Positions 2 to 38,834 of a stretch of DNA of 64,000 nucleotides are shown here, piece by piece; positions within the stretch are counted from its first letter, which is position 1; each line of letters starts with the position of its first letter. The notes under the pieces are model-generated. The model saw only the letters and a program-made list of their open reading frames with translations, was not told the DNA's origin and ran no database searches. The DNA is from a virus, in the IMG/VR virus record IMGVR_UViG_3300045988_126550, positions 64,001 through 128,000 of that record. One strand, given 5' to 3'. Position numbers and translations under genes: made by a program.

Positions 2-2638
2 GATTATTGGAGAAGTAATTTTTTTGAACCTTTGAGAAATCATTTTGGTGATAATTTTTATCTTGAAGTTCAAGATCATAATGACCAAAATCAAATTGAA
101 TATAATAAAAAAATTATTGCATTACATCGAGAAACTGGTGTTCACATTATTCATGCTAATGACTCACATTATATTTTACCAGAAGATGCTAAGTATAGAG
201 ATTTGTTCTTAAAAGCAAAAGGAATCATTTATGAAGAAGAAAGTGGGTTTTGTCTTGATTATCCTGATTCTGATACTATTTTTCAAAGATATGAAAAGCA
301 GGGCGTCTTAATAAAAGAAGAGGTAGAAGAAGCGTTGCGAAATACTCTTATTTTTGATAATGCCGAGGGCATTTTTATTGATAAAGAGTTTAAAATCCCT
401 AAAGTAGTAGAAGGAGATAGTAATGCCATATTAAAAAAACTAATTAATGAGGGATGGAATAAAGAAAAACATAACGTTCCAAAAGAACGTCACAAAGAAT
501 ATATTCAACAAATAAGATACGAATATAAGATTATTGAAGACTGTGGGATGGCAGATTATTTTATTCTTGACCATTATGTAGTTAAAAAAGCAGTAAAAGA
601 ATATAACGCTATCTTAACTCGCAGCGGAAGAGGAAGTGCAGTTTCTTTCTATATCAATAAATTATTAGGGTTAACAGAAGTTGATAGAATTGCAGCGCCT
701 ATTAAACTTTATCCGACAAGATTTATGTCCGCTGAACGTATTTTAAATAGCAGATCGTTACCAGATATTGATCTTAATTTTGCGGATACATCACCTGTTG
801 TACAGGCTAGTAAGGATATCTTGGGACAAGATGGCATTTATTATATGATTGCGTATAAGCCGCTACAAGAATCTTCTGCATTTAGACTTTGGTGTAAAGC
901 ACATGATATGCATATTTCTGAATATGATGACATTGCAAAAAACCTAGATAGCTATTTGAATGATCCTAAGTGGAAGGATTTAATTGATGGAAGTAAAATC
1001 TTTAGAGGCGTTGTAGAAAGTGTTGCTCCTAGCCCTTGTAGTTTCTTATTGTCTAATGATAAAATTTCTGAAATGGTCGGGCTTATTAAGGTTGGAGATG
1101 AGATTTGCTGTTGCCTTGATGGTTATAACTGTGATGTTTATAAATTTCTAAAAAATGATTATCTTACCGTTTCTGTCTATCAAATCATTCATGATGTTTA
1201 TGAACTAATTGGAAGACCTATTGATGATATTAATACATTAATTAAAAATTGTGATCAGAAAGTTTGGGATGTCTACGCAAAAGGATTAACAACAACAATA
1301 AACCAAGCAGATTCAGATTATGATAAGCAGATATTAAAAAAGTATAAACCTACTAATCTTGCGGAACTTTCAGCATATGTCGCTGCTATACGCCCAGGAT
1401 TTGCATCTCTGCTTAATAATTTTATTGAGAGAAAACCATATACAACAGGGGTTAAAGAACTTGATGATATACTAGATGACTCTTTTCATTATCTTATGTA
1501 CCAAGAAAGTATTATGAAATATCTTGTCTGGTTAGGAATGGAAGAAAAAGGTACCTATGATGTTATTAAAAAGATAGCAAAGAAAAAATTTAAAGAAGAG
1601 GAATTAAATGCACTTAAACACGAGCTATTAAATGGCTGGGTTAAAAATGTAGGAGCAGAAGATGGATTTGCAGATACTTGGCAAGTTGTTACAGATGCGG
1701 CGCATTATTCATTTAACGCATCTCATAGCCTAAGTGTGGCAATCGATTCAATGTACGGAGCCTATTTAAAATCGCATTATCCTCTCGAATACTTTACGGT
1801 AGTTCTTACAATGTATAGTGGTGATATGGATCGAACTGCAAAACTTATTGATGAATTACCATACTTTGGAATTTCTCTAAAAGATATTAAATTCAGGCAT
1901 TCTAAAGCAGATTATAACTGCGATAAAGAAGAAAAAACAATTTATAAGGGGATGTCTTCCGTAAAATTTATTAATGCAGAGACATCGGATAAACTTTATG
2001 CAATGAAAGATGAACACTTTGATTCTTTCGTTGATGTCGTTAAGGCATTCCCCGGAAATAGTAGAATGCTTGATATTTTAATTAAGCTTGATTTTTTCTC
2101 TGAATTCGGAAAAATAGGTACGCTTTTACGTACTGTAGAACTCTACAACGCTTATGGTGGCAAGAAGTTGCTTAAGAAGGATAAGTGTAAGCTACCGTCC
2201 GAACTACTATCAAAGTATTGTACAGAGACTGAGAAACAGTGGCGTGTACAAGATCAAGACGGACTTATTAAAGAGCTGTGTTCTATGATCCCAGATGTTG
2301 ATGTGCCAATTCAGAGCAAAATCGAATGGTCTAAAGAGTATCTTGGCTATATCTCAACTATAATGCCAAATAAAAAGAATATTGGGTATGTTGTAGATCT
2401 TAACACTAAGTGGAGTCCTCGTGTTATAGTGTATCAACTATGGAATGGGAAAACTGTTGCATATAAAGTACAAAAGAGAGCGTATGAGAAAAATCCATTT
2501 GATAAAGGGTGCTTATTACAATTTAATTCGGAAATGCGTAATAAGAGCCGCAAAGATGAGAACGGACAATGGATTAAACTCCCAGAACAAGAACCTTGGT
2601 TAACAAATTATTTGGTAAATGTGCAATTAACCTCTTGA
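2..2638 (+). CDS. dnaE: DNA polymerase III alpha subunit (DnaE-type); N-terminus lies upstream of the window
   Basis: Frame is open from nt 2 (DYWRSNFFEP precedes the listed TTG). Motifs GRGSAVSFYINKLLGLTEVD, LPDIDLNFAD, AAIRPG and YQESIM fit Pol III alpha. TGA at 2636. Confidence 0.85.
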   Translation, partial: DYWRSNFFEPLRNHFGDNFYLEVQDHNDQNQIEYNKKIIALHRETGVHIIHANDSHYILPEDAKYRDLFLKAKGIIYEEESGFCLDYPDSDTIFQRYEKQGVLIKEEVEEALRNTLIFDNAEGIFIDKEFKIPKVVEGDSNAILKKLINEGWNKEKHNVPKERHKEYIQQIRYEYKIIEDCGMADYFILDHYVVKKAVKEYNAILTRSGRGSAVSFYINKLLGLTEVDRIAAPIKLYPTRFMSAERILNSRSLPDIDLNFADTSPVVQASKDILGQDGIYYMIAYKPLQESSAFRLWCKAHDMHISEYDDIAKNLDSYLNDPKWKDLIDGSKIFRGVVESVAPSPCSFLLSNDKISEMVGLIKVGDEICCCLDGYNCDVYKFLKNDYLTVSVYQIIHDVYELIGRPIDDINTLIKNCDQKVWDVYAKGLTTTINQADSDYDKQILKKYKPTNLAELSAYVAAIRPGFASLLNNFIERKPYTTGVKELDDILDDSFHYLMYQESIMKYLVWLGMEEKGTYDVIKKIAKKKFKEEELNALKHELLNGWVKNVGAEDGFADTWQVVTDAAHYSFNASHSLSVAIDSMYGAYLKSHYPLEYFTVVLTMYSGDMDRTAKLIDELPYFGISLKDIKFRHSKADYNCDKEEKTIYKGMSSVKFINAETSDKLYAMKDEHFDSFVDVVKAFPGNSRMLDILIKLDFFSEFGKIGTLLRTVELYNAYGGKKLLKKDKCKLPSELLSKYCTETEKQWRVQDQDGLIKELCSMIPDVDVPIQSKIEWSKEYLGYISTIMPNKKNIGYVVDLNTKWSPRVIVYQLWNGKTVAYKVQKRAYEKNPFDKGCLLQFNSEMRNKSRKDENGQWIKLPEQEPWLTNYLVNVQLTS

Positions 2639-2662
2639 CAAATCCAAAATCTATGCTATAAT
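2635..2662 (+). promoter_or_regulatory. sigma-A type promoter (cTTGACAaat, 16-nt spacer, TGcTATAAT), first of a tandem pair
   Basis: -35 at 2635-2640 overlaps the dnaE stop codon. Extended -10 at 2654-2662. Followed by a 10-bp-stem hairpin at 2677-2715. Confidence 0.7.
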
Positions 2663-2716
2663 ACAGACACAGTCAAGGGGCGATTCAAGCACTTACACAT
2701 ACTGCGAATCGTCCTC

Positions 2717-2760
2717 TTGACAAATTAAAATTTTGTGTTATAATCACAATACAAAATTAA
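2717..2760 (+). promoter_or_regulatory. sigma-A type promoter plus conserved CAATACAAAATTAA leader element
   Basis: -35 at 2717-2722, TGtTATAAT ending at 2744, 14-mer at 2747-2760, then GGAG and ATG at 2777. Confidence 0.75.
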
Positions 2761-2776
2761 TGAAGGAGAATTTAAA

Positions 2777-2971
2777 ATGAAGATGATCCCTGAAAAAGAC
2801 AGAGACTTTCGGAAGTGTTACTTCTGTGGTGGCTTTCACACCAAAGAAAATCCTGTGGCTTTTGAACTGGATGTAGATGAGACAACTATTCCAGAGAGTG
2901 AAGCAAAGTTTCTCGGCGGTTCAGTTTATTGTTGTAAAAAGTGCTTAGAGAAGGAGTGGATGGCAACATAA
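2777..2971 (+). CDS. small Cys-rich (Zn-ribbon-like) hypothetical protein
   Basis: RBS gaaggag; CYFCGG...CCKKC cysteine pairs. Confidence 0.6.
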   Translation: MKMIPEKDRDFRKCYFCGGFHTKENPVAFELDVDETTIPESEAKFLGGSVYCCKKCLEKEWMAT

Positions 2972-3055
2972 TGGAACTTATGATTTTGGCAGTTATTGCT
3001 TTTGTTTTTGGTGGCATCTGGTGCGCTATCTTTGGAAGGAATTGGAGGAAGACAG

Positions 3056-3418
3056 ATGACGATTCTGAATCAATACGAGATTCTTAAAAATGTAACCCCG
3101 ACTTGGTGGCATGTTGTTCTTACTTTGTGGCATGTTGTTCTTATAGTGAGTGTTGTAGCTATTATGGTCATGACTAGTATCGAATGCAAAACTAATTCGG
3201 ATTCTTTGCTGTTAGCTATATTTTGCATTGTCATCTTCGGTCTCATATGGGCAGGGGGAGTAAAGCTAATTGTGACTAAAAAGGACGTTCCAACAGGTCG
3301 CTATCGTTACGAGTGCACAATTGACGATGACGCGTCATTCGTTGATATTTATGAGAAGTACATTGTAGTTGAGCGACGTGGAGATTTGTGGATTTTGGAG
3401 GACAAAGATGAGACTTGA
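3056..3418 (+). CDS. membrane protein, paralog of 4259..4582
   Basis: Start moved to ATG 3056 (RBS ggagga). MTILNQY... N-terminus, two hydrophobic segments and the C-terminal RRGDLWILEDK are shared with 4259..4582. Confidence 0.65.
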   Translation: MTILNQYEILKNVTPTWWHVVLTLWHVVLIVSVVAIMVMTSIECKTNSDSLLLAIFCIVIFGLIWAGGVKLIVTKKDVPTGRYRYECTIDDDASFVDIYEKYIVVERRGDLWILEDKDET

Positions 3419-3590
3419 CGACTTATTCATTTGTCCAAAGTGCCAGAGCAATGACCACAAAGAGATTAGTGAGGATTTTTGTATCGAGGATAGCAACTAC
3501 CATGTAAAATGTCGTTGTAATAATTGTGGATATCTTTATGGTTATCGTTTTGGCTTCGATTTTTATCTGGATGAAGAAGAGGAGAATTGA
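3408..3590 (+). CDS. small Zn-ribbon protein
   Basis: ATG 3408 after GGAGG, overlapping the upstream stop. CPKC...CNNCG. Confidence 0.55.
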   Translation: MRLDDLFICPKCQSNDHKEISEDFCIEDSNYHVKCRCNNCGYLYGYRFGFDFYLDEEEEN

Positions 3591-4070: not shown

Positions 4071-4259
4071 ATGAGTATCAATATTTGGGACGTTGAGATT
4101 ATTGACGAAACAACGAGATGTATTCTTCAGCACATCTATTTCTTTACTCGTAAAAGCGCTGAGCAATACGGGCAGAGACACACGAAAGAGTGGAGACAGA
4201 ATGGTTGGGTTTGGGCTATGGGTGGCGAGCCTCTGTATTTTGGGAGGATTAGAGACTGA
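4071..4259 (+). CDS. hypothetical protein
   Basis: RBS gaggaggg; stop overlaps the next start (TGATG). Confidence 0.5.
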   Translation: MSINIWDVEIIDETTRCILQHIYFFTRKSAEQYGQRHTKEWRQNGWVWAMGGEPLYFGRIRD

Positions 4260-4582
4260 TGACGATTGTAAATCAGTATCCTGTAATGGAAAGCGGGCCA
4301 GCTTGGCTTGGTCTTTTGCTTGGAATTTGTTGTGTAGTCGGCGTACTTCTTACTATCTTAGCTTTATCAGATAAAATGTATGGTATAGCAATAGGAACTG
4401 GAATTTTTTGGGCACTTTCCCTGATTGGTCTTATTGTTGTAATCCATGGTAAGAAAACTGATAGGTCTTGTTATGAGTGTTTGATTGATGATACGACGCC
4501 TTTCGTAGAAGTGATTGAGAATTACAATATTACCGGCCGGCGCGGGGACTTATGGATTTTGGAGGATAAAGTAGATGAGTAA
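4259..4582 (+). CDS. membrane protein, paralog of 3056..3418
   Basis: MTIVNQY..., two TM segments, C-terminal RRGDLWILEDK. Confidence 0.65.
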   Translation: MTIVNQYPVMESGPAWLGLLLGICCVVGVLLTILALSDKMYGIAIGTGIFWALSLIGLIVVIHGKKTDRSCYECLIDDTTPFVEVIENYNITGRRGDLWILEDKVDE

Positions 4583-4715
4583 TATTCGCTTTGATATTTA
4601 TCTACAAAGAGAAAATCTTCACTTTGGTGTCAAAGAAGGTATTTCTTTGGACGAACTTGCTTCTGTTCTTTCTTCTTTTTTTGAAAGTGGAGAAAATTGG
4701 CATAAGATGAAGTAG
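4575..4715 (+). CDS. possible 46-aa ORF (not in the track)
   Basis: ATG 4575 lies 9 nt after GGAGG and overlaps the upstream stop. Translation MSNIRFDIYLQRENL...HKMK. Confidence 0.35.
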   Translation: MSNIRFDIYLQRENLHFGVKEGISLDELASVLSSFFESGENWHKMK

Positions 4716-4828
4716 TGCTGGCTTGAAAATGGGAAGTCTAGGGATTTTCAACATTTGATGAAAGAAGCACTACTTGGGGCTTATGACACTTTCTGTATGG
4801 ATGATTTGGTTTGAAAGGAGATTTGGAA

Positions 4829-5434
4829 ATGTCTGTAATTCGTTGTAAAATTCCCTCAAATAGTGTTGAATGGTCAGACCCAAATGGGAAACCCGGAAGA
4901 AAGGATTTTGAAATGGAAAATTACATTATGCTTGATGGTCGTAAGTTTGAACTGGATAGCGTTTTGGCAGAGAAGCTTCGCGCGACTGTCAACAATCAAA
5001 AACTTGAAAACGAAAAGAAAAGGAACCCTTTTGAGCGGCAAAAGAAAGAACTATTCTACTATTTTATCGATATCGATGGCACAGTCGGTGAATATAAAGA
5101 AAAGTTTTATGCAAGCGATGACGACCTTTATAATATTGGCAACTACTGCACTGATAAGAAGCTAATGAGTCAGCGCGCACTTCATGAAACTTTGAATAGA
5201 CTTCTTTGGAGATTTTCTCTTGAGAATGGTGGAGATGGTGAATGGAATGGGAATGATGCCCATTACTATATTACTTTTCAGTCTGGGGTTGGAGAAAAAA
5301 AGTTACAAGTAGACTGGACTTCACAGTGGCGTCATCAAGGAACAGTTTTCTTTTCTTCGAGGTGCGTTGCAGAAAGAGCTATTGACGAAATCGTGAAACC
5401 TTTTATGGTAGAGCATCCTGAATTTGTGTGGTAA
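4829..5434 (+). CDS. hypothetical protein
   Basis: ATG 4829 after aaaggag. Confidence 0.55.
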   Translation: MSVIRCKIPSNSVEWSDPNGKPGRKDFEMENYIMLDGRKFELDSVLAEKLRATVNNQKLENEKKRNPFERQKKELFYYFIDIDGTVGEYKEKFYASDDDLYNIGNYCTDKKLMSQRALHETLNRLLWRFSLENGGDGEWNGNDAHYYITFQSGVGEKKLQVDWTSQWRHQGTVFFSSRCVAERAIDEIVKPFMVEHPEFVW

Positions 5435-6666: not shown

Positions 6667-6725
6667 TTGACAAATAAGAAAAACGTGTTATAATCTAGAC
6701 GGTAAGAAACACAAAACAAAATTAA
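6667..6725 (+). promoter_or_regulatory. sigma-A type promoter plus ACAAAATTAA leader element
   Basis: cTTGACAaat at 6666-6675, TGtTATAAT ending at 6694, aaaACAAAATTAA ending at 6725. Confidence 0.75.
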
Positions 6726-7336: not shown

Positions 7337-8200
7337 ATGGGTGGCGGTTCTTGGACGAGAGATAGCTTTACTAGCTATGTAACTACTGCAAAGTGTGCAA
7401 TGGTAGACGATTTTGGTGTTGTCAGAGGACTAAATAGTGTTCAGGATAATTTTAAGTCGAGATGTCTAGTGGCGGAGCTTAATCCTAAAAATGTTGTTCG
7501 CGAGTGTGTAGATTCCGCAGAACATCCTAATACAAAGCCTGTTATTCTGGCGCTCGATGTAACTGGCAGTATGGGAAGTGCAGCAATGGAAGTTGCAAAG
7601 CAGATCAATGTTGTTATGACAAGCCTATATGAGAAGATGACAGATGTTGAATTTATGATTATGGGTATTGGAGATCTTGCTTATGATAACGCTCCAATTC
7701 AAGCGTCTCAGTTTGAATCAGATATCAGAATCGCAGAACAGCTTGATAAGATTTATTTTGAGGGCGGTGGCGGCGGCAATTCTTATGAGTCCTATACTGC
7801 CGCATGGTATTTTGGGCTTAATCATACCAAGCTAGATTGTTGGAGTCGTGGGCAGAAGGGTGTTATTATTACAATGGGTGATGAACCTTTGAATCCGTAT
7901 CTGCCTAAGAATACTCTATCTGTTGCGACTGGTGATAATCTACAGGATGATGTTGAGACAGCTCAGCTTTATAAGGACGCTTCTGGAAAGTTCGATATCT
8001 ACCATTTGTATGTAAAGCATGGGTATGGTCGTTATGAAGAAGCTGTTAAGGATACTTTCGGCAAGTTTCTTGATGCGAATCATCTCAAGACTACATCTGT
8101 AAATAAGATTGCAGATGATATTATTGAAATTGTAACAAATGCATTTACTGGAAGCGATACAAGTACATTTGTAAATACTAGTGAAGGAATTTCTTGGTAA
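7337..8200 (+). CDS. von Willebrand factor A (vWA) domain protein
   Basis: MIDAS-like ILALDVTGSMGS followed by an alpha/beta pattern. Confidence 0.65.
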   Translation: MGGGSWTRDSFTSYVTTAKCAMVDDFGVVRGLNSVQDNFKSRCLVAELNPKNVVRECVDSAEHPNTKPVILALDVTGSMGSAAMEVAKQINVVMTSLYEKMTDVEFMIMGIGDLAYDNAPIQASQFESDIRIAEQLDKIYFEGGGGGNSYESYTAAWYFGLNHTKLDCWSRGQKGVIITMGDEPLNPYLPKNTLSVATGDNLQDDVETAQLYKDASGKFDIYHLYVKHGYGRYEEAVKDTFGKFLDANHLKTTSVNKIADDIIEIVTNAFTGSDTSTFVNTSEGISW

Positions 8201-8214
8201 GAGGAGATAAACAC

Positions 8215-9363
8215 ATGTCTAATGTTAAAGTAGTAATCGGTAGCAACTTTGGGGACGAAGGAAAAGGATTGATGACTGATTATTTCTGCGCAGAAGCAAA
8301 AAAGCGGAATGAATCCTGTATTGTTGTTTTATCCAATGGCGGAGCACAGAGAGGGCATACTGTGGTTACGCCAGATGGCATTAGACATGTGTTTCATCAT
8401 TTTGGTTCTGGCACTTTTGCAGAAGCCCCTACATATTTTAGCGAGCAATATATTTTAAATCCTATGACTTTTAGAAAAGAGTATGAAGAATTGGATTCTT
8501 TAGGCTTTAAGCCACTCGTTTGTGCGCATTGGAATTGCAGATGGTCAACGCCGTATGATGTGATCGTAAATCAAATTCTTGAAGATAGTCGTGGAGAAAA
8601 TCGACATGGATCTTGTGGCATGGGAATCTGGGAAACTATCTGTAGATATACAAGCGCTGGAGCACCATCATTGCGGCATTTTAATATGATGAGCGAAGAA
8701 TATAAAGTTCAATTTCTCAAAAATATTAGAGATAAATATATGCCGCAGAGATTGGCATCTGCGAACCCAGATGTAGTAAAACAGTGGGAAGAAATTCTAT
8801 ATTCTGATAATCTAATTTATAATTTTATTGATGATATTCAGTTTATGTGCTCACATATTGTTTTTGATTATGGACGCATATTGAGACGATACGACAATGT
8901 TGTATTTGAAAATGGGCAAGGTCTTCTGCTAGATCAGAACCAAACAAGATACGGAGACAATACAACTCCTAGCAATACTGGGATTCAGAACCCACATGTG
9001 ATTATTGAAAAGTATTTATTTGGCGCCAACGTTGAAGTGTGTTATGTTACAAGAACATACCTGACAAGACATGGTGCTGGGGCTTTTGATAGTGAATGTG
9101 ATAAATCTGAAATCAATGACTCTATGGAAGATAGAACTAATGTACCAAATCCGTATCAGGGCAGCATTCGATATGGGAAGTTGGATGTTGATGAACTTGT
9201 AAGCAGAATCAAAAAGGATATTGGTGCGCATTCTTACAATGTATCTTTGGCAGTGACGCATTTGAACGAGTTTGACAACAAAGAGTTATTGGCACTAAAA
9301 GAGCTTAATGTTAAGTATTTGTCTTATAAGGAGACTAGAGAATTGACAGAAAAAATTTTCTGA
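8215..9363 (+). CDS. adenylosuccinate synthetase family protein (short PurA/PurZ-like)
   Basis: GSNFGDEGKG P-loop and NGGAQRGHTVV match PurA GDEGKG / GGxNAGHT. 382 aa, which is shorter than cellular PurA. ATG 8215 after gaggag. Confidence 0.7.
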   Translation: MSNVKVVIGSNFGDEGKGLMTDYFCAEAKKRNESCIVVLSNGGAQRGHTVVTPDGIRHVFHHFGSGTFAEAPTYFSEQYILNPMTFRKEYEELDSLGFKPLVCAHWNCRWSTPYDVIVNQILEDSRGENRHGSCGMGIWETICRYTSAGAPSLRHFNMMSEEYKVQFLKNIRDKYMPQRLASANPDVVKQWEEILYSDNLIYNFIDDIQFMCSHIVFDYGRILRRYDNVVFENGQGLLLDQNQTRYGDNTTPSNTGIQNPHVIIEKYLFGANVEVCYVTRTYLTRHGAGAFDSECDKSEINDSMEDRTNVPNPYQGSIRYGKLDVDELVSRIKKDIGAHSYNVSLAVTHLNEFDNKELLALKELNVKYLSYKETRELTEKIF

Positions 9364-15859: not shown

Positions 15860-15914
15860 TTGACAAATTGTAAATACATGATATACTAATACAGGATAAA
15901 CAATACAAAATTAA
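15860..15914 (+). promoter_or_regulatory. sigma-A type promoter plus CAATACAAAATTAA element
   Basis: gTTGACAaat, TGaTATACT ending at 15887, 14-mer at 15901-15914. Confidence 0.7.
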
Positions 15915-15932: not shown

Positions 15933-16088
15933 ATGAAGACAGATAAGTATATTTTATTTTATAAGCATAATGGAGTTAATAAATGGATTGACGCAAATAA
16001 TCTATCACTGCTTAAAACAGTGCCGAATATTTGCGAGTGGATGACAGAATACAAAATTATTGACAGCACAACTGGAGAGGAGGTATAA
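15933..16088 (+). CDS. 51-aa hypothetical protein (not in the track)
   Basis: ATG 15933 downstream of aaaggatgg; ends 1 nt before the next start. Confidence 0.45.
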   Translation: MKTDKYILFYKHNGVNKWIDANNLSLLKTVPNICEWMTEYKIIDSTTGEEV

Positions 16089-16089: not shown

Positions 16090-17190
16090 ATGAGAGTGTA
16101 TATGGACAATGCTGCCACAACTCCCATTTGTGAAGCAGCAAAGAAAGTTATTCTAGAAAATTTGGATGAGTTCTATAATCCCAACAGTTCTTATGAGACG
16201 GCTCGTAATGTCAAAGTAAAGGTAGAAGAAGCACGTGAAAAGATTGCGGAGTTGATTGGGGCAGAACCAAACGAAATCTATTTCACGTCTGGTGGATCAG
16301 AAGCAAACTCATGGGTGATGTGTAATGGATTTTCTGTTACTTCTAATATTGAACATCATTCTATTAAATCAGATTTTAAAATTAATGTAGATTCAAATGG
16401 ATTGATTGATTGTACAAAATTTAAAACAAAGATACATGAAATGAAAGACAATGATTTTTGTATCCCACCAAGCATTGCATCGTGTATGTTTGTAAATAAC
16501 GAAATAGGGGTAATTGAACCAATTAAAGACTTGGCAAAGATTGCACATGACAATAATATGTTATTTCATTCAGACGCAGTACAGGCCTTCCCTCATATGA
16601 AGATTGATGTAAAAAATCTTGGCGTAGATATGATGTCGTGTTCGGGGCACAAGTTTGGTTCTCCTAAGGGGATCGGCTTCCTGTATATTAAAAATGGAAT
16701 TAGTATTAATCCATTAATTAATGGTGGCGGGCAGGAAAGAGGGATCCGAGGCGGCACGACCAATGTACTGGGCGTCCTTGCAATGGCGGCAGCTTTAGAA
16801 GATACAATCGCGCACATGGATGAAAACAACGCGAAAGTCTCTTGCTTATCAAAGAAATTAAAGGATAACTTACTTGGGGTAAAAGGAGTCACACTTAATG
16901 CAATTGATGCAAAAACTCCATGTATAGAAAGTATTTTAAACCTCAGGATTGACGATGTGAAGAGTTCTGACCTAGTCACAATGTGTGATCTATATGGCAT
17001 TGAGATTAGCTCTGGGTCGGCATGTAACGAAGGAACAGCAGAGCCTTCTCATGTGCTCAAAGCTATTGGGCTCACAACCGAACAGGCATTAAGCAGCATT
17101 AGAATCTCACTATCTCATCTAAACACTGAAGAAGAAATCGACTATGTTTCTAAAATGTTACCAAAAATTATTTCCAGATTACGCCAGTAA
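16090..17190 (+). CDS. cysteine desulfurase (NifS/IscS-like class V aminotransferase)
   Basis: ATG 16090 after ggagaggagg. YMDNAATTP N-terminus, SGHKFGSPKGIGFLY PLP-lysine motif, SSGSAC active-site loop. Confidence 0.85.
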   Translation: MRVYMDNAATTPICEAAKKVILENLDEFYNPNSSYETARNVKVKVEEAREKIAELIGAEPNEIYFTSGGSEANSWVMCNGFSVTSNIEHHSIKSDFKINVDSNGLIDCTKFKTKIHEMKDNDFCIPPSIASCMFVNNEIGVIEPIKDLAKIAHDNNMLFHSDAVQAFPHMKIDVKNLGVDMMSCSGHKFGSPKGIGFLYIKNGISINPLINGGGQERGIRGGTTNVLGVLAMAAALEDTIAHMDENNAKVSCLSKKLKDNLLGVKGVTLNAIDAKTPCIESILNLRIDDVKSSDLVTMCDLYGIEISSGSACNEGTAEPSHVLKAIGLTTEQALSSIRISLSHLNTEEEIDYVSKMLPKIISRLRQ

Positions 17191-17195: not shown

Positions 17196-17240
17196 TTGAC
17201 AAATGAAGATTCCATGCTATAATAACAATACAAAATTAAT
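17196..17240 (+). promoter_or_regulatory. sigma-A type promoter plus CAATACAAAATTAA element
   Basis: cTTGACAaat, TGcTATAAT ending at 17223, 14-mer at 17227-17240. Confidence 0.75.
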
Positions 17241-19428: not shown

Positions 19429-19908
19429 ATGGGAACTAACTTCTATATGATTACAAAGAACAAAGAAATGGCTCAGCGGTATGCACCATATTCTTATGAG
19501 CTTACGGATACGCCATATTTCGGATATGAGATTCACGTAGCCAAGACTAGTTTTGGCTGGTTGCCGCTTTTCCAAGAGCATAAAGATGGTATTAACTCTG
19601 TAGCTGAGTATAAAGTGGCATATGATACAAATGAGTTTAAAATTTATGATGAATACGGATGTGAATACAATTGGGATGCCTTTGATGATAGAGTGCTAAA
19701 GTTCAATGGCGGGGTTCTTGGGGTACAGGAGCCGAAGAAGATTGAGCAAAACAAATATTTTCGATGGTATGACAAGAGCATGCCAGACTATTGCCCTGTT
19801 AGTCATATTAGTGGAAGTCTGCAGAGCTATAAGTTTGATGGTTTGTTTGCGAATGATTATTTCGTTGACGCTGATGGATTTGAATTTTCAAGGAGTGAAT
19901 TTTCGTAA
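19429..19908 (+). CDS. hypothetical protein
   Basis: RBS aaggag. Confidence 0.5.
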   Translation: MGTNFYMITKNKEMAQRYAPYSYELTDTPYFGYEIHVAKTSFGWLPLFQEHKDGINSVAEYKVAYDTNEFKIYDEYGCEYNWDAFDDRVLKFNGGVLGVQEPKKIEQNKYFRWYDKSMPDYCPVSHISGSLQSYKFDGLFANDYFVDADGFEFSRSEFS

Positions 19909-21023
19909 TGTATCATCTTGAACTAAGAGACTTCATTCTTTCTCATGAAAACTGGGAAGAACTACTCACAGCTGATCCTTACAACCTAAAGATTTCTCGT
20001 GATGGCAATTATATCATGTTCAAGTATAATCAAATCTCTTCTGATTTTACAATTCCTCTAGTTCGTGAAGCACGTGGAATTATTTTCAGAGAGAGTGATT
20101 GGGAATGTGTCTGCGAAAAATTTACAAAATTCGGCAATTACGGCGAGTCTTATTGCCCAGACATTGATTGGGCAACTGCTTCTGTGCAGGAAAAAGTTGA
20201 TGGATCGCTTATTGGCATGTTTTATGATAATGGATGGCATATTTGTACCAATGGTACAATTGATGCCTTTAAAGCGGAACTTAATGATGTGAAGTATCAG
20301 AATTTTGGGCAGCTTGTCCTTGCGGCAATTCATCGTGTATTTGAAGACGAGCATAAGTTCTTTACGATGCTAGATCCAAAATGTACATATATGTTTGAAC
20401 TCGTGTCTCCTTATAACCGTGTTGTAATTCCGTATGAAGACACTAAGCTATATTTTCTTGGTATACGTGATATGGAAGATGGGAAAGAATGGAATCCAGA
20501 AGATTCTGATATAAGCTATGATTTTGAAATGCCTAAGCGTTATTCTCTTCATTCTCTTGAAGATGTACAGAAGGCAGCAAATGCACTTCCTTGGGACGAA
20601 GAAGGTTATGTGGTATGCGACGCAAATTTCAACAGAGTAAAGATTAAGTCTGGTGCTTACGTTATGGCACATTATGCTCGTAATAATGGAGTAGTCAATA
20701 CAGAGCGTCTTGTTCAGATTATACTGGATGGAGAGCAGGAAGAGTTCCTTACTTATGCATCCGATTATACTGACGAGTTAAAGAAAGTGGGAAAAGCAAT
20801 GTATGAGATTGGGTATAAAGCATTTGATAAGCTGAGAGAAATTTTTAACATGAAAGAGTTTGAAACTCGTGGTGCTTATGCTCGTGAAGTTATGAAATGC
20901 CCAATGTATATGAAAGACTTCCTATTCCATTGTTTTGATTCTAGAATCTTTTGGGATTATGCAAAGTCTTGGGATGCAAATAAATGGGTTAAAGCTATTA
21001 ATGAATTAAATGGAGGTATTTAA
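19908..21023 (+). CDS. ATP-dependent RNA ligase (T4 Rnl1-like)
   Basis: Nucleotidyl-transferase motif I QEKVDGSL, upstream LVREARGIIF, size ~370 aa. Confidence 0.75.
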   Translation: MYHLELRDFILSHENWEELLTADPYNLKISRDGNYIMFKYNQISSDFTIPLVREARGIIFRESDWECVCEKFTKFGNYGESYCPDIDWATASVQEKVDGSLIGMFYDNGWHICTNGTIDAFKAELNDVKYQNFGQLVLAAIHRVFEDEHKFFTMLDPKCTYMFELVSPYNRVVIPYEDTKLYFLGIRDMEDGKEWNPEDSDISYDFEMPKRYSLHSLEDVQKAANALPWDEEGYVVCDANFNRVKIKSGAYVMAHYARNNGVVNTERLVQIILDGEQEEFLTYASDYTDELKKVGKAMYEIGYKAFDKLREIFNMKEFETRGAYAREVMKCPMYMKDFLFHCFDSRIFWDYAKSWDANKWVKAINELNGGI

Positions 21024-22097: not shown

Positions 22098-22718
22098 ATG
22101 ATTAACATTCGTCAAGACTTGATTCAAAAGGAGTTTGAAAAAGGTTGTACCAATGGGCTTACATTTCGAAAATTAAAGCCTAGCAATAGATTTATTGATA
22201 AGCTTTTTAATCATTACTATGTTGCCGAGCACACAGAACATTTCTATGATTCTGAGCCGGAATATGATGATGAAGAATTCAATATGTATATGGATTACGC
22301 TTATATTCATCATAGAATAAATCCTACTTCTGGCACTGCTCTTTTTAATACAATTCTTAATTCTGAAGAAATAGCAAAAGAACAAGAAGACTTTCGTTTT
22401 TCAAAAGAAGAACACACAATAGAAGAACTAAAGCAAGCGTATGATAAAATTATACAACAGAGAAAAGATTATGAGCTACACAGAATTGAATTTAACAACT
22501 GGATAGAGCCTTATTTTAAGGGTAATTGGAGAATGTCTCAGAAAGATGTTGACAAAATTAGCAGAGAGCATCTTGAATACACAAAGAAATGTGGAGTAAG
22601 TTATAATGGCAGACTTTACATTGCAGAAAAAGAAGATTCGATTTTTATTTATTACTACGGCAGAGATTTTGCAATGGTAGATTATTGGTGGATTTTTAAG
22701 AGAAGAAGGAGAAAATAA
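22098..22718 (+). CDS. hypothetical protein
   Basis: Tightly packed ORF with no recognised motif. Confidence 0.45.
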   Translation: MINIRQDLIQKEFEKGCTNGLTFRKLKPSNRFIDKLFNHYYVAEHTEHFYDSEPEYDDEEFNMYMDYAYIHHRINPTSGTALFNTILNSEEIAKEQEDFRFSKEEHTIEELKQAYDKIIQQRKDYELHRIEFNNWIEPYFKGNWRMSQKDVDKISREHLEYTKKCGVSYNGRLYIAEKEDSIFIYYYGRDFAMVDYWWIFKRRRRK

Positions 22719-23623
22719 TGGTTAAGTGTTTTGTTATGTGTGGACTCCCCGCAAGCGGAAAGAGTTGGCAAGCCAAGAAACTTGCCGAGGAATATGATGC
22801 AGAAATTTTCTCTAGTGACTCACTTCGAGAGGAAATGTTCGGAGATGTGAATCATCAGGCAGACAACGATGCTCTGTTCAAGGAACTACATAAGCGTATT
22901 AGAGAGCGTCTTGCTTCTGGCAAGAATGCCATTTATGACGCCTGCAATATCAGTTATAAGCGCCGTATGGAATTCCTTAAGTCTCTTAACAAAATTCCTT
23001 GTGAGAAAATTGCAATCCTCATGGCAACGCCTTATGAAGTCTGTCTTGAACGTAACACACAACGAGAGCGTAAAGTCCCAGAACATGTTATTAAACGTAT
23101 GTATATGAGCTGGAATAGTCCATATTGGTATGAAGGTTGGGACGATATTCAGATTGTATATTCAGAAGGAGCAGAAGGAAGCTACGGAGGAGTAGGTGAT
23201 TGGGTTGAGTCTGTTATGGATTACAACCAACATAACAGCCATCATTCTTTAACACTTGGGGAACATTGTCTCAAAACATTCGAATACTTAAATTCATTGC
23301 CAGTTGCATTCTGGGAACTTAGAACTGCGGCGTTGATACATGATTGTGGCAAATGCAAAAGTGCTACATATATCAATAGTAAGGGCGAACAAACGGATGA
23401 ATGCCATTATTATAATCACCAATTTTGTGGATCATACGACAGCTTGTTCTTCAGCGGTATAGATAGACATCTTTATATTGCGCAACTTATTCAATGGCAT
23501 ATGAGAGCGTACCTTGCGTGGGAGCATTCTGAAAAAGCAATGCAGAAGGATAGAAAACTTCTTGGGAAGACTTTATTTAATGATATTTGTTTGCTTCACG
23601 AAGCAGACCTTGCAGCGCATTAA
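22718..23623 (+). CDS. P-loop polynucleotide-kinase-like domain fused to an HD phosphohydrolase domain
   Basis: Walker A CGLPASGKSW at the N-terminus; AALIHDCGK...YNHQFCGSY in the C-terminal half. Confidence 0.7.
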   Translation: MVKCFVMCGLPASGKSWQAKKLAEEYDAEIFSSDSLREEMFGDVNHQADNDALFKELHKRIRERLASGKNAIYDACNISYKRRMEFLKSLNKIPCEKIAILMATPYEVCLERNTQRERKVPEHVIKRMYMSWNSPYWYEGWDDIQIVYSEGAEGSYGGVGDWVESVMDYNQHNSHHSLTLGEHCLKTFEYLNSLPVAFWELRTAALIHDCGKCKSATYINSKGEQTDECHYYNHQFCGSYDSLFFSGIDRHLYIAQLIQWHMRAYLAWEHSEKAMQKDRKLLGKTLFNDICLLHEADLAAH

Positions 23624-23670: not shown

Positions 23671-23729
23671 TTGACAAATAGCAAATTCATGCTATAATAA
23701 TGGCAGAAACAAGAACAATACAAAATTAA
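23671..23729 (+). promoter_or_regulatory. sigma-A type promoter plus CAATACAAAATTAA element
   Basis: cTTGACAaat (a second TTGACA lies 8 nt upstream), TGcTATAAT ending at 23698, 14-mer at 23716-23729. Confidence 0.75.
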
Positions 23730-25650: not shown

Positions 25651-26484
25651 ATGGATAAGACATCTCTTGGTGATAGAATGAAAAACAACTATGAAAATGT
25701 TAATAGATTTTATTTAACAAGAAGAATACCAGTTATTATTAGAATGGATATGAAGGCCGGTCATACTTTTACTAGAGGAATGAAGAAGCCGTTTGATGAT
25801 ATTTTCGTAAAGACAATGCAAGAGACTATGAAGTATCTCTGTGAAAACATTCAGGGTTGTGTGCTTGGTTACACTCAGAGCGACGAGATTTCTCTTGTAC
25901 TGACAGACTATGCAGGGTTGACAACAGATGCATGGTTTGGAAACAATCTACAGAAGATGTGTAGCGTATCTGCGAGTATGGCAACATTGGCATTTAATAA
26001 AGCATTTAACGACAATATTGTAAAGTATATTGACAGTTATTTTGATACCGATTGTGGGGTTACGAAGGATTTAGCTGAATATACAAAGATTCTCATTAAT
26101 GCAAGAAATAAAGGCGCAATGTTTGACTCTCGTGTTTTTACAATTCCTAAAGAGGAGGCATGCAACTACTTCATCTGGAGACAGCAAGATGCCACTCGCA
26201 ATTCCATCCAGTCTGTGGGTCAAGCAAACTTTAGTGATAAAGAATTGCATAAGAAATCCACTAAAGACATTCAAGATATGCTTATGACTCAGAAAGGTAT
26301 CAACTGGAATGACTATGCAACGACTCTAAAGCGTGGTAGCTGTTGTATTAAAGCCGATGATAGTCTTACCGAGTATGACGAGGTGGGAAATATTTGTGGT
26401 TATATCCAGAGAAGTAAGTGGGTAATCGATAATAAAATTCCTATCTTTACTCAGGACAGAAACTATGTTGAAAAGCTAATTTGA
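25651..26484 (+). CDS. Thg1-like protein (tRNA 3'-5' nucleotidyltransferase, TLP)
   Basis: GDRMKNNYE, PVIIRMDMKAGHTFTRG, KPFDD and GYTQSDEISLVL match the Thg1/TLP N-terminal catalytic core. Confidence 0.8.
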   Translation: MDKTSLGDRMKNNYENVNRFYLTRRIPVIIRMDMKAGHTFTRGMKKPFDDIFVKTMQETMKYLCENIQGCVLGYTQSDEISLVLTDYAGLTTDAWFGNNLQKMCSVSASMATLAFNKAFNDNIVKYIDSYFDTDCGVTKDLAEYTKILINARNKGAMFDSRVFTIPKEEACNYFIWRQQDATRNSIQSVGQANFSDKELHKKSTKDIQDMLMTQKGINWNDYATTLKRGSCCIKADDSLTEYDEVGNICGYIQRSKWVIDNKIPIFTQDRNYVEKLI

Positions 26485-31310: not shown

Positions 31311-31354
31311 TTGACAAATATTATAATCGTGCTATAATAACAGTACAAAATTAA
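31311..31354 (+). promoter_or_regulatory. sigma-A type promoter plus CAGTACAAAATTAA element
   Basis: cTTGACAaat, TGcTATAAT ending at 31338, 14-mer variant at 31341-31354. Confidence 0.75.
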
Positions 31355-31699: not shown

Positions 31700-32030
31700 G
31701 CTTGTTGGATGGTCTGATATTTTGAGCAGTCATTGCACTGAGCGTCTTACAAATGCTCATAAGCAGGAAATTGTGAAAACTATCAGACGTAGACATTATA
31801 ATTTTACTTATTTTGATCATCAGAATATGAGTTATTGCTGCCCATTCTTTGATAATGGTTATATGATTTCACTTAATAAAAAGCAGTTTGATGAAATTAT
31901 GGCAGAAGCCTATGAGGAAATTCCAGTTGGACAGAGATTGCTCCCTATGGACGCAATTAAATCTAAGCCTGTTAATGAAGTACTATTTGAAAAAGAAGAA
32001 TATGTGAAGGATGTGAAATGGCATGGATGA
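31692..32030 (+). CDS. hypothetical protein
   Basis: ATG 31692 after ggaggag. Confidence 0.5.
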   Translation: MPKLVGWSDILSSHCTERLTNAHKQEIVKTIRRRHYNFTYFDHQNMSYCCPFFDNGYMISLNKKQFDEIMAEAYEEIPVGQRLLPMDAIKSKPVNEVLFEKEEYVKDVKWHG

Positions 32031-32583
32031 TAGAAAGACTATTTTCTTAATTCTAGCGGAGAGTGGCGCTGGTAAAGATACGATTGTCGATAGGCTTTGC
32101 AAGACTGGACTTAAGAAATTGGTTAGCCACACTACACGCCAAAAGCGTCCAGATGAACCAGATACAAGTCACGTATTTTCTACTTATGATGATTATGTGA
32201 AGGCCAAGGAATCTGAGCAGATCATTGCAGAAACGTGTATTAATAACATTTATTATTGGGCAACAAAAGAACAATTAAAAGATGCCGATATTTACATCAT
32301 CGACTGCAAAGGTGCTGATATGTTACAATCTATGGGGCTCCCTTATAGGTTTGTTCGTATTTATATCAATGTACCAAAAGCAATTCGCAGAGAAAGAGCC
32401 ATTAAGCGCGGAGATAACATGGATACATATGCTAGACGTGCCGCTGACGAATTTGAGCAATTTGCAAATATGAAGATTCATAATAGGTATGATTATGCAG
32501 TTTCTAATATTGACAGTGCAAAAGCTGGGAGCATTATTAGATGGATTATTAATACCGAAAGAATTGGCACAGTACAAAATTAA
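32023..32583 (+). CDS. guanylate-kinase-like (d)NMP kinase
   Basis: P-loop AESGAGKDT followed by SHTTRQKRPDE. Confidence 0.65.
   Translation: MDDRKTIFLILAESGAGKDTIVDRLCKTGLKKLVSHTTRQKRPDEPDTSHVFSTYDDYVKAKESEQIIAETCINNIYYWATKEQLKDADIYIIDCKGADMLQSMGLPYRFVRIYINVPKAIRRERAIKRGDNMDTYARRAADEFEQFANMKIHNRYDYAVSNIDSAKAGSIIRWIINTERIGTVQN
32570..32583 (+). promoter_or_regulatory. CAGTACAAAATTAA element without an obvious strong promoter
   Basis: Overlaps the last codons and the TAA of the kinase gene, 2 nt before AAGGAG of the next gene. Confidence 0.5.
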
Positions 32584-36020: not shown

Positions 36021-36554
36021 ATGAATTATTTAGGGATTAGTAAATGTTCCATCGCAGATGGCACAGGAGTACGAGTAGTACTCTGGGTCTCTGGATGCAA
36101 TATACATTGTCAAGGGTGCCAGAATCCAGAATCATGGGACTTTAATGCTGGTAATATTTTTGATGAAGCTGCTAAAGAAAGGCTATTTGAAGCATTAAAT
36201 CATTCATGGGTAAAAGGATTAACAATATCTGGCGGGCATCCTTTAGAATATAATAATTTACCAGATGTATATGATCTTGTCAAAGAGGTTAAAGAAAAAT
36301 TTCCAGATAAGGATATTTGGCTATACACTGGATATACATTAAAAGATAGTGATTTTGATACAACAGTTGACGTTGGTTTTGATAACGGCCTATTAGCAAA
36401 CTATATTCTGGCGCTGTGTGATGTTGTAGTTGATGGGCCTTATGTTGAAAGTCTTAGAGATGTTTCTCTAAAATTTCGAGGCTCTGCCAACCAGAGACTT
36501 ATTGACGTAAAGAAAACAATTGAACAATACAAAATTAATTTATTGGAGGAATAA
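36021..36554 (+). CDS. nrdG: anaerobic RNR activating enzyme (radical SAM)
   Basis: DGTGVRVVLWVSGCNIHCQGCQNPE. Confidence 0.9.
   Translation: MNYLGISKCSIADGTGVRVVLWVSGCNIHCQGCQNPESWDFNAGNIFDEAAKERLFEALNHSWVKGLTISGGHPLEYNNLPDVYDLVKEVKEKFPDKDIWLYTGYTLKDSDFDTTVDVGFDNGLLANYILALCDVVVDGPYVESLRDVSLKFRGSANQRLIDVKKTIEQYKINLLEE
36525..36538 (+). promoter_or_regulatory. CAATACAAAATTAA element inside the 3' end of nrdG
   Basis: Exact 14-mer, 6 nt before GGAGG preceding the HNH gene region. Confidence 0.5.
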
Positions 36555-37337: not shown

Positions 37338-37646
37338 ATGAATAATAATATTAACACAAGAAAATATAGTTGTGCAGTATGTGGCAAAGAATATGATAGC
37401 ATTGAAGATCGCAATAAGTGTGAAGCTCAGTGCATTGCTGACCGCAAAAAGGCGGAAGCGGCACTTGCAAAGAAAAAGCTTGAGGACGAAAAAGCTGCTC
37501 GTAAGGCAGAAATTGATAAGAAGTACAAGGAACTAAATGTTCTTATCGACAATTATATCAAGGACTATGGCTCCATTCAGATTGGTGAGGCTCGTTATTT
37601 TGATGATTTCCCTGCGCTATCTAAGCTGCTTGGAGGTTGGTTTTAA
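37338..37646 (+). CDS. hypothetical Zn-finger / coiled-coil protein
   Basis: RBS aaaggag. CAVCG...CEAQC. Confidence 0.5.
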   Translation: MNNNINTRKYSCAVCGKEYDSIEDRNKCEAQCIADRKKAEAALAKKKLEDEKAARKAEIDKKYKELNVLIDNYIKDYGSIQIGEARYFDDFPALSKLLGGWF

Positions 37647-38152
37647 TGAATGTAAAGTTTGCAAAAGTAAGACCAAGCGCAAAGGCTCCAATTAAAGGAG
37701 ATGCTGGCAACATGTGCTTTGATTTCTTCCCTTGTTTTGAGCAGGACTGGATTGAAATTAAGCCATTTGAAGTGAAGCTGGTACCTACTGGTATTGCGAC
37801 CGCTTTTGATAACAGCCTAGGTCTAGTCTTTAGAGAGCGTGGCTCTACAGGGAAGATTAATCTCAAGGTTAATTCTGGTGTAGTAGACGCAAATTATAGA
37901 GGAGAAATTTTTGTGGCTCTCCTAAATTGTAATAAAGACAGGTCAATCTTTATTTCTAAATTTGGAGATACTGGAGAACAGTCTCCTTTGGCTGAACATC
38001 CAGATGGAATTCTTGTTCCATATGAAAAGGCTATTTGCCAAGGAATGTTTTTACCAGTTCCTGAAATTGAACTTGAAGAAATTGGTTTTAATGAGCTATC
38101 TCAAATTCCCTCTGCAAGAGGAGCAAATTGTCTTGGTAGTAGCGGGCGCTAA
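37646..38152 (+). CDS. dut: dUTP diphosphatase
   Basis: TAATG overlap. GDAGNMCFDF, GVVDANYRGEI and IPSARG..GSSG motifs. Confidence 0.8.
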   Translation: MNVKFAKVRPSAKAPIKGDAGNMCFDFFPCFEQDWIEIKPFEVKLVPTGIATAFDNSLGLVFRERGSTGKINLKVNSGVVDANYRGEIFVALLNCNKDRSIFISKFGDTGEQSPLAEHPDGILVPYEKAICQGMFLPVPEIELEEIGFNELSQIPSARGANCLGSSGR

Positions 38153-38272: not shown

Positions 38273-38467
38273 ATGAAATATATTACCGTTAAACAATTAT
38301 ATGAACAATTAAACGCACAACATCAAGGTATAATAGGAATCAATTCTGTATATGATCTTGTCAAAAGAAAAGACTTTCCCTCCGTAAGAATCGGCAACAA
38401 ATTTCTTGTTATTGAAGATAAAGTTGATGCATGGTTCGAAAAGAAAACTTTAGCTTATAAAAAATAA
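38273..38467 (+). CDS. xis: excisionase-family helix-turn-helix DNA-binding protein
   Basis: ATG 38273 after aaggag. ITVKQL...VYDLVKRKDFPSVRIGNKFLV. Confidence 0.65.
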   Translation: MKYITVKQLYEQLNAQHQGIIGINSVYDLVKRKDFPSVRIGNKFLVIEDKVDAWFEKKTLAYKK

Positions 38468-38469
38468 TA

Positions 38470-38485
38470 TTGCAATGCATTGCAA
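38470..38485. repeat. perfect 16-bp palindrome TTGCAATGCATTGCAA
   Basis: Self-complementary. Its 3' 10-mer TGCATTGCAA recurs at 40030-40039, after the int terminator. Confidence 0.8.
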
Positions 38486-38486
38486 G

Positions 38487-38522
38487 TTGTGGTACAATAA
38501 AATTGTGGTAAATGATGTGGTA
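38487..38522 (+). repeat. three direct (T/A)TGTGGTA repeats, candidate arm-type recombinase sites
   Basis: Copies at 38487-38494, 38503-38510 and 38515-38522. Confidence 0.55.
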
Positions 38523-38747
38523 AGGTTTTAAATTATGCTAAGTTGAAACCTGATAATATTAGCAATTTATCATCATTCTATATTTAGAAGATGATATTCC
38601 TCATATAGAAATGTTAGCATATTTTAAGTAGTACTTATAAATACACATAAAGCCTTATACTACAGTAGTTCGAACAGCATTATATTATTTTTAATTTCAC
38701 TAATAATCACTACAAATAATAATAAATTACGATTTATAATGGCGCAA

Positions 38748-38788
38748 TTGTGGTATTATTGTGGCACTAAAAATTGCCTTGACCACAT
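38748..38788 (+). repeat. two further TTGTGG(T/C)A repeats and one inverted copy
   Basis: 38748-38755 and 38759-38766 are direct; 38782-38788 (ACCACAT) is inverted. Confidence 0.55.
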
Positions 38789-38820
38789 CTAAAACACAAT
38801 ATATAATAATATATGATACA

Positions 38821-38834
38821 ATAATTTTGTATTG
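38821..38834 (-). promoter_or_regulatory. inverted copy (13 of 14) of the CAATACAAAATTAA element upstream of int
   Basis: The reverse complement of ataattttgtattg is CAATACAAAATTAT. It is embedded in the inverted repeat TACAATA...TATTGTA. Confidence 0.45.

Follow-up and report, generated by a model that had tools for sequence, protein, structure and literature searches.

The master repressor of the Bacillus subtilis prophage SPbeta, MrpR (YopR), has a tyrosine-recombinase fold, is monomeric in solution and binds a 15-bp element, SPBRE, at ten promoter regions, binding having been established by chromatin affinity purification sequencing (ChAP-seq) and electrophoretic mobility shift assay (EMSA), i.e. 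on DNA (Kohm et al. 2023, PMC10516654). Operator and stoperator sites have been described for gp71, the repressor of mycobacteriophage L5 and Cluster A phages (Brown et al. 1997; PMC9283540). Here, a repeated 15-nt motif was analysed in a 64,000-nt stretch of viral DNA (positions 64,001 to 128,000 of IMG/VR record IMGVR_UViG_3300045988_126550; hereafter the window, numbered from its first nucleotide) and in the contigs of related phages, which are denoted by L numbers where they need to be told apart. Comparison of these sequences suggests, with a probability of roughly 0.6, that the motif is an SPBRE-equivalent set of double-stranded DNA operators to which a MrpR-family master repressor would bind. 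To our knowledge, MrpR and SPBRE were described only in 2023 and only in Bacillus SPbeta-like phages. The kind of system is therefore itself known, and what is new on this reading is a distant SPBRE-MrpR member in phages of Clostridia, with a half-site-like motif and, as a novel twist, promoterless copies that resemble stoperators.

A repeated motif at the early promoters of the window

The full motif is an asymmetric sequence of 15 nt, ACARYACAAAATTAA, with 10 gene-strand copies between 2746 and 36538 of the window. Its 14-mer, CAATACAAAATTAA, is present in six exact copies (at 2747, 9838, 15901, 17226, 23716 and 36525), in four forward copies with one mismatch (6712, 9416, 31341 and 32570) and in one inverted copy with one mismatch (38821-38834). 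At up to two mismatches, 14 matches were observed against 3.25 expected, a number reached in 0 of 100 shuffles. A weight matrix trained on relatives' sites alone returned 10 strong sites (23-28 bits), on the + strand only and between 2745 and 36540, together with a weak site at 16045 (14.8 bits) and an inverted site at 38819-38836 (18.2 bits), where 0.67 hits of at least 12 bits were expected under the null. There was no motif on either strand in the 24 kb of late genes at 40-64 kb.

Nine sigma-A promoters on the + strand of the window consist of TTGACAAAT (TTGACA followed by AAT), a 16-nt spacer and TGn followed by TATAAT (TATACT at 15860), and there was no such consensus promoter on the - strand. 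Besides the -35 and -10 elements, the motif is the only conserved element that these promoters share. The sequences between -35 and -10 differ between all copies while the motif stays invariant, so its conservation is not the result of recent duplication. The first promoter (2635..2662, with TGcTATAAT) is the sole one without a motif of its own and stands in tandem, 82 nt upstream of the next. At the others the 14-mer begins either 2 nt after the -10 (three sites) or 13-18 nt after it (five sites). The short class comprises the promoter at 2717..2744 with ACAATACAAAATTAA at 2746..2760 (27.6 bits; core 6 nt after the -10, at the predicted +1, with the Shine-Dalgarno sequence (SD) 2 nt further), that at 17196..17223 with ACAATACAAAATTAA at 17225..17239 (25.3 bits) and that at 31311..31338 with ACAGTACAAAATTAA at 31340..31354 (27.6 bits). 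The long class comprises the promoters at 6667..6694 and 9370..9397, each with ACAAAACAAAATTAA (6711..6725, 24.2 bits, core 21 nt after the -10; 9415..9429, 23.1 bits, 22 nt after it), and those at 9795..9822, 15860..15887 and 23671..23698, each with ACAATACAAAATTAA: at 9837..9851 (26.7 bits), before two tRNA-like RNAs (9888-10136) and with no SD after it; at 15900..15914 (25.3 bits; 17 nt after the -10); and at 23715..23729 (26.7 bits), abutting the SD AGGAGG.

Two further + strand copies are promoterless. In ACAGTACAAAATTAA at 32569..32583 (23.4 bits) the TAA is the stop codon of a guanylate-kinase-like gene (32023-32583), with the SD of NT5C directly after, and ACAATACAAAATTAA at 36524..36538 (25.3 bits) lies within the 3' end of an nrdG-like gene (36021-36554); the orthologous site in L213 has the TTAT variant of that lineage. 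A possible weak copy, AGAATACAAAATTAT, also promoterless, stands at 16046..16060 (14.8 bits), 29 nt before the SD of the gene at 16090-17190. The inverted copy (ACAATACAAAATTAT on the - strand, 38821..38835, 18.2 bits) lies in the leader of the tyrosine integrase gene int (38858..40000, + strand), between the int SD and the -10 of a putative int promoter (38779..38807, + strand; TTGACC, 17 nt, TATAAT).

An earlier sequence-only reading of the window had placed the nine promoters, including the motif-less first one, exactly where they were found, and had rightly put two copies within the 3' ends of genes without an obvious promoter. Its count of six exact 14-mers also held, with five of the positions, the fourth beginning at 17226 and not at 17227. 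Two of its four variant positions are the starts of 14-mers (31341 and 32570), and the other two (6716 and 9420) are the starts of an invariant 10-mer core, 4 nt inside the 14-mers. That the motif follows the -10 was correct, but the range of 2-21 nt given for the gap gives way to the two distances above. The copy at 9838, said to precede a tRNA island, stands before the two tRNA-like RNAs and the gene of a 515-aa protein, the called tRNAs starting at 12557.

Further observations were made at these promoters. In the long class, the stretch between -10 and motif is also conserved, about ACAGACAGTTCAAAAGAAC (2663-2680, 6695-6710, 9398-9414 and 9823-9836), and looks like a second, degenerate copy of the motif in tandem, spaced by ~13 nt. 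The promoter at 2635-2662 is followed, within 2663-2716, by a conserved hairpin with a 15-bp stem (GTCAAGGGGCGATTC / GAATCGTCCTCTTGAC) and a loop with invariant ACTTACACATACTG, the 3' arm of which overlaps the -35 of the next promoter. The same arrangement follows the gene for the DNA polymerase III alpha subunit (PolIII alpha) in three lineages, with compensatory changes in 5 of 15 pairs, and may correspond to an attenuator or encode a small RNA. An activator or MotA-like model, in which a -10-like element would follow the motif at a constant distance, was examined by eye at six window sites and rejected, as there was no fixed spacing.

Conservation of the motif among related phages

As a query for relatives, the 14-mer alone gave >120 mostly unrelated matches, and a combined promoter-plus-motif pattern was used instead. 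This pattern recurs in many viral contigs of 100-170 kb. Per 22 kb, PolIII alpha-anchored loci of relatives contain 7-10 cores on the gene strand against 0-1 on the opposite one, and the motif is retained in lineages whose PolIII identity ranges over 42-98%. The full family motif is 15 nt, ACARY-ACAAAATTAA, and was present at 111 of 133 strict consensus promoters (distinct promoters of motif-bearing lineages). Of 171 distinct motif copies, 52 have the core exactly 6 nt downstream of the -10, its first A then being the predicted +1, 47 have it 15-23 nt downstream, and 9 have it within the spacer or partly over the -35; one spacer-class promoter of the family is TTGACA-ATACAAAATTAATGTAG-TATAAT. 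A further ~31 copies are promoterless and lie 0-5 nt before an SD, often overlapping the preceding stop codon and most often as ACAAAATTAA-TGGAGG. Some relatives' copies stand 4 nt before tRNAs.

The inverted copy upstream of int, to which the sequence-only reading had drawn attention, is not due to chance: it is kept between the int -10 and SD in phages with an Int 56% identical, in which the flanks differ. It also follows the variant of its lineage, with TTAT in the forward and inverted copies of L213 and TTAA in both in L218.

A near-perfect palindrome, AATACAAAAT-A-ATTTTGTATT (AATACAA-AATAATT-TTGTATT), is formed by the int-leader motif of L213. It looks like a recombinase core site and, on a more speculative reading, the operator may descend from a recombination half-site.

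Other sister clades keep the promoters, but with other repeated elements or none. L173 and L209 have ACTAATTAAAAATA after stop codons and before SDs, and L168-L170 have AAAACGC just upstream of the -35 plus a CCACAATCGGAGG leader. The early genes of Clostridioides difficile phage phiCD211 (L212) have a short TTTTAATA before the SD; nothing relevant was found in the literature on phiCD211 promoters.

A MrpR-family gene upstream of the window

SPbeta YopR gave no match by tblastn against 1.6 Mb of family loci, in one of which SPbeta YonO was matched. MrpR-family open reading frames (ORFs) were found in family loci with a hidden Markov model built from MrpR homologues and, walking upstream of the window, a MrpR-family gene was present in 9 of 9 contigs fetched of the window's lineage. 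The ORF at 1431-2318 of L263 matches Pfam MrpR_N_CB (PF22822) at 53.5 bits (cut-off 27) and the YopR/MrpR entries 8bj6 and 8a0a of the PDB at E about 1e-9, with 25% identity to SPbeta YopR (E 5e-12). PDB entries 9rd5 and 9rgl, annotated as 'core-binding (CB) domain-containing protein', were also matched by the MrpR-like protein. L263 overlaps window positions 1-2435 at 95.7% identity, which places the MrpR-like gene ~17.1 kb upstream of the window start. In a Pfam domain search this ORF had no Phage_integrase match, the adjacent ORF having one at 5e-35. The MrpR-like protein is predicted to have a tyrosine-recombinase fold, with no integrase catalytic domain detected at the level of such a search. 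The gene order runs integrase-type ORF, MrpR, AAA_24 (Sak4-like), YorH-like, DnaB, RecJ and PolIII alpha, and mirrors yopP-yopR and yorG-yorL of SPbeta (YorL being PolIII alpha). More than 1,100 MrpR-like proteins (E <= 1e-5) are present in public data and, among the matches listed, those on long contigs are on contigs of 130-176 kb.

The mrpR promoter of the window's lineage, TTGACT-AAATTAATATTGTATTG-TATAAT, has as its spacer an inverted motif with one core change, ACAATACAATATTAA. This inverted motif is kept, with differing flanks, in five lineages in which MrpR is 69-99% identical. A clade with a MrpR 34% identical has the motif ACAACAAAATGATT (CAAAATGATT) after the -10, in promoter spacers and, promoterless, before SDs, and has inverted ATCATTTTGTG in the spacer of its own mrpR promoter. 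The core ACAAAATTAA is common to MrpR proteins 42-100% identical.

PMC10516654 names ten MrpR ChAP-seq targets, and the sequences upstream of these genes were used to derive an SPBRE consensus for comparison. The derived element, AAATACAAA(A/T)AATATGTAT, has 11 sites in SPbeta at <=2 mismatches, all 11 co-oriented with the downstream gene. Most lie in the spacer of TAGACA-N17-TATAAT promoters, e.g. TAGACA-AATACAAATAATATGTA-TATAAT, some directly follow the -10 and abut the SD (yopV, yopM and the second yonX site), and some are upstream of the -35.

Proposed mechanism and alternative explanations

The presence of Xis, attP-like repeats and a catalytic Int indicates a temperate phage, in the lysogen of which nine near-perfect sigma-A promoters would need to be silenced. 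The most probable explanation for the motif is that, in the lysogen, a monomeric MrpR-family repressor occupies each copy. Since copies lie at -5..+10, at ~+10..+28 or in the -35/-10 spacer of near-consensus sigma-A early promoters, bound repressor would block RNA polymerase binding or promoter clearance in all early operons, occluding or trapping the polymerase at every early promoter. The promoterless copies between a stop codon and the next SD would then act as co-oriented road-blocks to read-through, in the manner of L5 stoperators, and the inverted copies in the mrpR promoter spacer and int leader would tie both genes to one protein, giving autoregulation and control of int. More tentatively, a recombinase-fold repressor may have converged on stoperator logic, with ~20 promoters silenced, promoterless copies stopping elongation and the inverted, slightly degenerate copies escaping an orientation-dependent block, with autoregulation or int control as the outcome; this extension is rather improbable.

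Several observations weigh against an MrpR operator set. The motif agrees with SPBRE at only 12 of 17 positions (ATACAAA-N4-ATG; P = 0.02-0.08 under composition-matched nulls), and intercistronic promoterless MrpR sites have not been reported in SPbeta. The MrpR-like gene lies outside the window and was seen in contigs about 96% identical over the overlap, and the MrpR_C_cat match (PF22823) of its product in L263 is, at 26.7 bits, just below the cut-off of 27. Evidence of co-variation comes from few lineages, MrpR-like proteins only 42% identical sharing one core, and within the window the inverted int copy ends in TTAT while all forward copies end in TTAA. Finally, the start of the short-class core at the predicted +1 and the position of promoterless copies 0-5 nt before the SD fit a role at the RNA level too.

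Under such a role, the leader ACAAAAUUAA 5' of the SD would be a translational repressor site, a determinant of RNA processing or stability, or a partner for pairing with the int leader. This would account for the 52 short-class promoters, the ~31 promoterless copies (mostly ACAAAATTAA-TGGAGG) and the strict strand bias, and the int leader contains a complement that co-varies with the forward copies, by which RNA-RNA pairing would be preserved; the phiCD211 early genes with TTTTAATA before their SDs are a further point in its favour. However, ACARY is equally conserved in the short class, in which it occupies -5..-1, and in the long and promoterless classes, and its conservation upstream of the predicted +1, where it is untranscribed from its own promoter, favours recognition as DNA. 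Copies within promoter spacers or overlapping the -35 are unable to function in RNA made from the promoter in which they lie, nor is the inverted copy in the mrpR spacer transcribed from the mrpR promoter. Taken together, the conserved untranscribed ACARY, spacer copies and inverted copies are hard to reconcile with an element acting in RNA only. Further, copies stand before tRNAs and tRNA-like RNAs with no SD, the promoters and gene order are present in one sister clade that lacks the motif, the analysis revealed no RNA-binding regulator, and the homologous SPBRE is bound as DNA (PMC10516654). The proximity to SDs can instead be attributed to the fitting of a 15-bp site into a minimal intergenic gap, as has been described for L5 stoperators. 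An RNA-level function is consequently considered unlikely. Of the two options left by the sequence-only reading, which had argued against a simple translational enhancer, that of an operator switching the early regulon is supported (by the 5' part kept upstream of +1, the spacer copies, the inverted promoter copies, the MrpR-family gene and the SPBRE architecture), and for an RNA processing or stability signal no positive evidence emerged.

All of the DNA-level evidence would apply equally to an operator for another phage protein, such as a factor for the early-to-late shut-off or an early protein with DUF6291 and a helix-turn-helix (HTH) domain of HTH_7/GerE type. HTH proteins are the first genes of motif-bearing operons (L229 5248-5610; L272 16414-17355), and the sharing of one motif by MrpR-like proteins down to 42% identity indicates a rather loose link between the two. 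Against this, the SPBRE parallel and synteny point to MrpR, as does the inverted motif in the mrpR promoter of five lineages and, in its variant form, of the 34% clade, and there was no evidence of co-variation of the motif with any HTH protein. A different DNA-binding protein therefore also appears improbable, and MrpR is retained as the candidate repressor.

Far less probable is that the motif is a promoter for a phage RNA polymerase, prolonging the reading of early genes over the host promoters. The family does encode a YonO-like single-subunit RNA polymerase of 943 aa, within a motif-bearing early operon (L229 9464-12295; Pfam RdRP, 7e-15), and the motif is co-oriented with genes and lies just 5' of SDs, also where there is no sigma-A promoter. 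SPbeta YonO transcribes late genes, however, and there are zero copies in the 24 kb of late genes here. An independent promoter would not be expected to keep a rigid 6-nt register to a sigma-A -10, the inverted copies face away from genes, and the SPbeta equivalent is a repressor site. The YonO-like polymerase presumably transcribes the late genes, consensus sigma-A promoters being absent from the late-gene strand (40000-64000, - strand). Finally, it is about as improbable that the motif serves no trans-acting factor and is baggage of a duplicated promoter-leader cassette or an optimal initially transcribed sequence, for although the promoters are near-identical, the short-class core occupies +1..+10 and mobile promoter cassettes are known in T4-type phages, the spacers differ at every copy while the motif is invariant, it persists over 42-98% PolIII identity, it also occurs promoterless, inverted and in spacers, and clade-specific variants replace it in the same contexts.

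Genome context and further features of the window

The + strand of the window carries, at 1-40 kb, genes for replication, nucleotide metabolism and RNA repair, including those for PolIII alpha, dCMP deaminase, NAD ligase, NT5C, NrdD/NrdG, an Rnl1-like ligase, a polynucleotide kinase (PNK)-like kinase and a Thg1-like protein. This arm ends in a HTH_17 excisionase-like gene, attP-like TTGTGGTA repeats and the catalytic tyrosine integrase. The tail genes follow on the - strand at 40-64 kb. The tape-measure protein is split between two - strand ORFs (48691-57210, 2839 aa; 57468-63893, 2141 aa) that match different profile parts of one PHROG tape-measure family, which implies a very long tail. There was no isolated phage close to the window at the DNA level; judged by PolIII alpha, its closest isolated relatives are Clostridium phage c-st (56%) and phiCD211 (51%). 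The window is identical over 21 kb to an ENA metagenome contig of 162.7 kb, and the genome bins of relatives point to Oscillospiraceae or Clostridiales hosts. The family consists of large temperate phages of Clostridia, probably of Oscillospiraceae, that resemble SPbeta.

Pfam and PHROG scans of ~55 window ORFs revealed Xis (HTH_17) and Int as the only regulators. The possibility that this Int is itself a MrpR-like degenerate recombinase was ruled out by its catalytic R, HxxR, H and Y; it resembles integrases of Tn916/Tn1549 type. Between xis and int, direct repeats of the TTGTGGTA type number three at 38486-38520 and two at 38748-38765, and look like integrase arm-type sites flanking a putative attP core. 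The contigs found were of the phage form only, with no attL or attR junctions among them.

Rfam identified two tRNA-like sequences at 9888-10136 with inserts of ~50 nt, neither of which is called by ARAGORN, and directly downstream is the gene of the 515-aa protein (DUF2828/DUF7788; 10379-11926; PHROG 850, 'RNA-binding protein'), with which they could form a Ro/Y-RNA-like module. Five tRNAs are located at 12557-14288. In the vicinity are the genes of the Rnl1-like RNA ligase (19908-21023), the PNK-like kinase with an HD domain (22718-23623) and the Thg1-like protein (25651-26484). The co-occurrence of a short adenylosuccinate-synthetase-like protein (382-389 aa), an HD-domain protein and a dUTPase-like protein (8194-9363, 18619-19413 and 37646-38152) recalls the PurZ/DatZ genes of 2-aminoadenine-DNA phages. 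However, the first matches only ordinary PurA structures in the PDB (E 5e-15), so that neither PurZ nor modified DNA (a Z-genome) is established; were the DNA modified, the A-rich operator would be chemically different in virion and prophage DNA.

The left end of the window (1-2638) lies inside the PolIII alpha region. In L262, PolIII alpha (20242 onward) is one 1022-aa ORF with a PHP domain, and in the window's lineage (e.g. L159, 9395-10210) the PHP part is upstream and seemingly separate from an 868-aa ORF, which could be due to a frameshift, a split gene or an insertion. In L229, divergent gene blocks are set apart by an AT-rich non-coding region of ~1.07 kb (4110-5180), which immediately precedes the first early promoter with a motif and contains two TTTTGTCATTTATGTC repeats adjoining the -35. 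This region may represent a genome terminus, an origin or a packaging site.

Comparison with known systems

These results suggest that recombinase-derived master-repressor logic operates in very abundant, uncultured temperate phages of 150-175 kb in gut Clostridia. The operator set is a clean one (~20 copies in three registers, with inverted copies and clade variants), and lends itself to the questions of how an asymmetric site is read by a monomeric recombinase fold and of whether elongation is blocked as by L5 repressors. In metagenomic contigs, the early regulon and lysogeny switch can be recognised by the motif and promoters, and the promoter-operator pairs could serve as tight switches in Clostridia.

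Among elements described in T4 and T4-type phages, the operators of T4 RegA are likewise a conserved A/U-rich sequence adjoining the ribosome-binding sites of many early genes. Here, however, the 5' part of the motif is conserved outside the transcript, copies stand in spacers, before tRNAs and inverted, and no RegA-like protein was found. The promoter early stem-loop (PeSL) cassettes of T4-type phages resemble the present promoters in being near-identical early promoters with conserved flanks scattered over the early region, but the motif here has no stem-loop, the promoter spacers have diverged and promoterless copies exist.

The L5 system is closer in its arrangement, having an asymmetric site of 13-15 bp, a repressor that is monomeric (here predicted to be so), >20 sites in promoters and in very short intergenic gaps that overlap stop or start signals, an orientation that tracks the direction of transcription, and clade-specific motif variants. 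The two differ in that gp71 consists of an N-terminal HTH and a Stoperator domain, a type of repressor not found in the Pfam and PHROG scans of the window ORFs, whereas the candidate here has a recombinase fold; L5 sites are on early and late arms, whereas those here are on the early arm only, with no late-gene copies in the window; and the motif is G/C-rich there and A/T-rich here. The orientation-dependent block to elongation of L5 is, for the present phages, proposed from the arrangement of sites. Given the different repressor fold and the absence of late-arm sites, the system does not belong to the L5-type family.

SPbeta provides the closest parallel: an A/T-rich element of ~15 bp is repeated at about ten sigma-A early promoters, co-oriented with transcription and located in the spacer or just after the -10 against the SD, a MrpR-family gene follows an integrase-like gene, and in each case the phage is a large temperate siphophage that encodes PolIII alpha and a YonO-like RNA polymerase, the gene order being shared. 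The monomeric state of SPbeta MrpR also fits an asymmetric site. There are differences nonetheless, the host being Bacillus there and Clostridia here and the proteins 25% identical. SPBRE is nearly palindromic through a 3' TGTAT arm that the present motif lacks, and its 11 sites genome-wide compare with ~20 here in the ~56 kb from mrpR to int. The three rigid registers, the many promoterless intercistronic copies and the inverted copies in the mrpR promoter spacer and int leader are features of the present family, and the stretches examined revealed no arbitrium genes. Binding of MrpR to SPBRE was measured in SPbeta, and we infer the corresponding interaction here from sequence, as that of a distant clostridial relative of the MrpR-SPBRE system.

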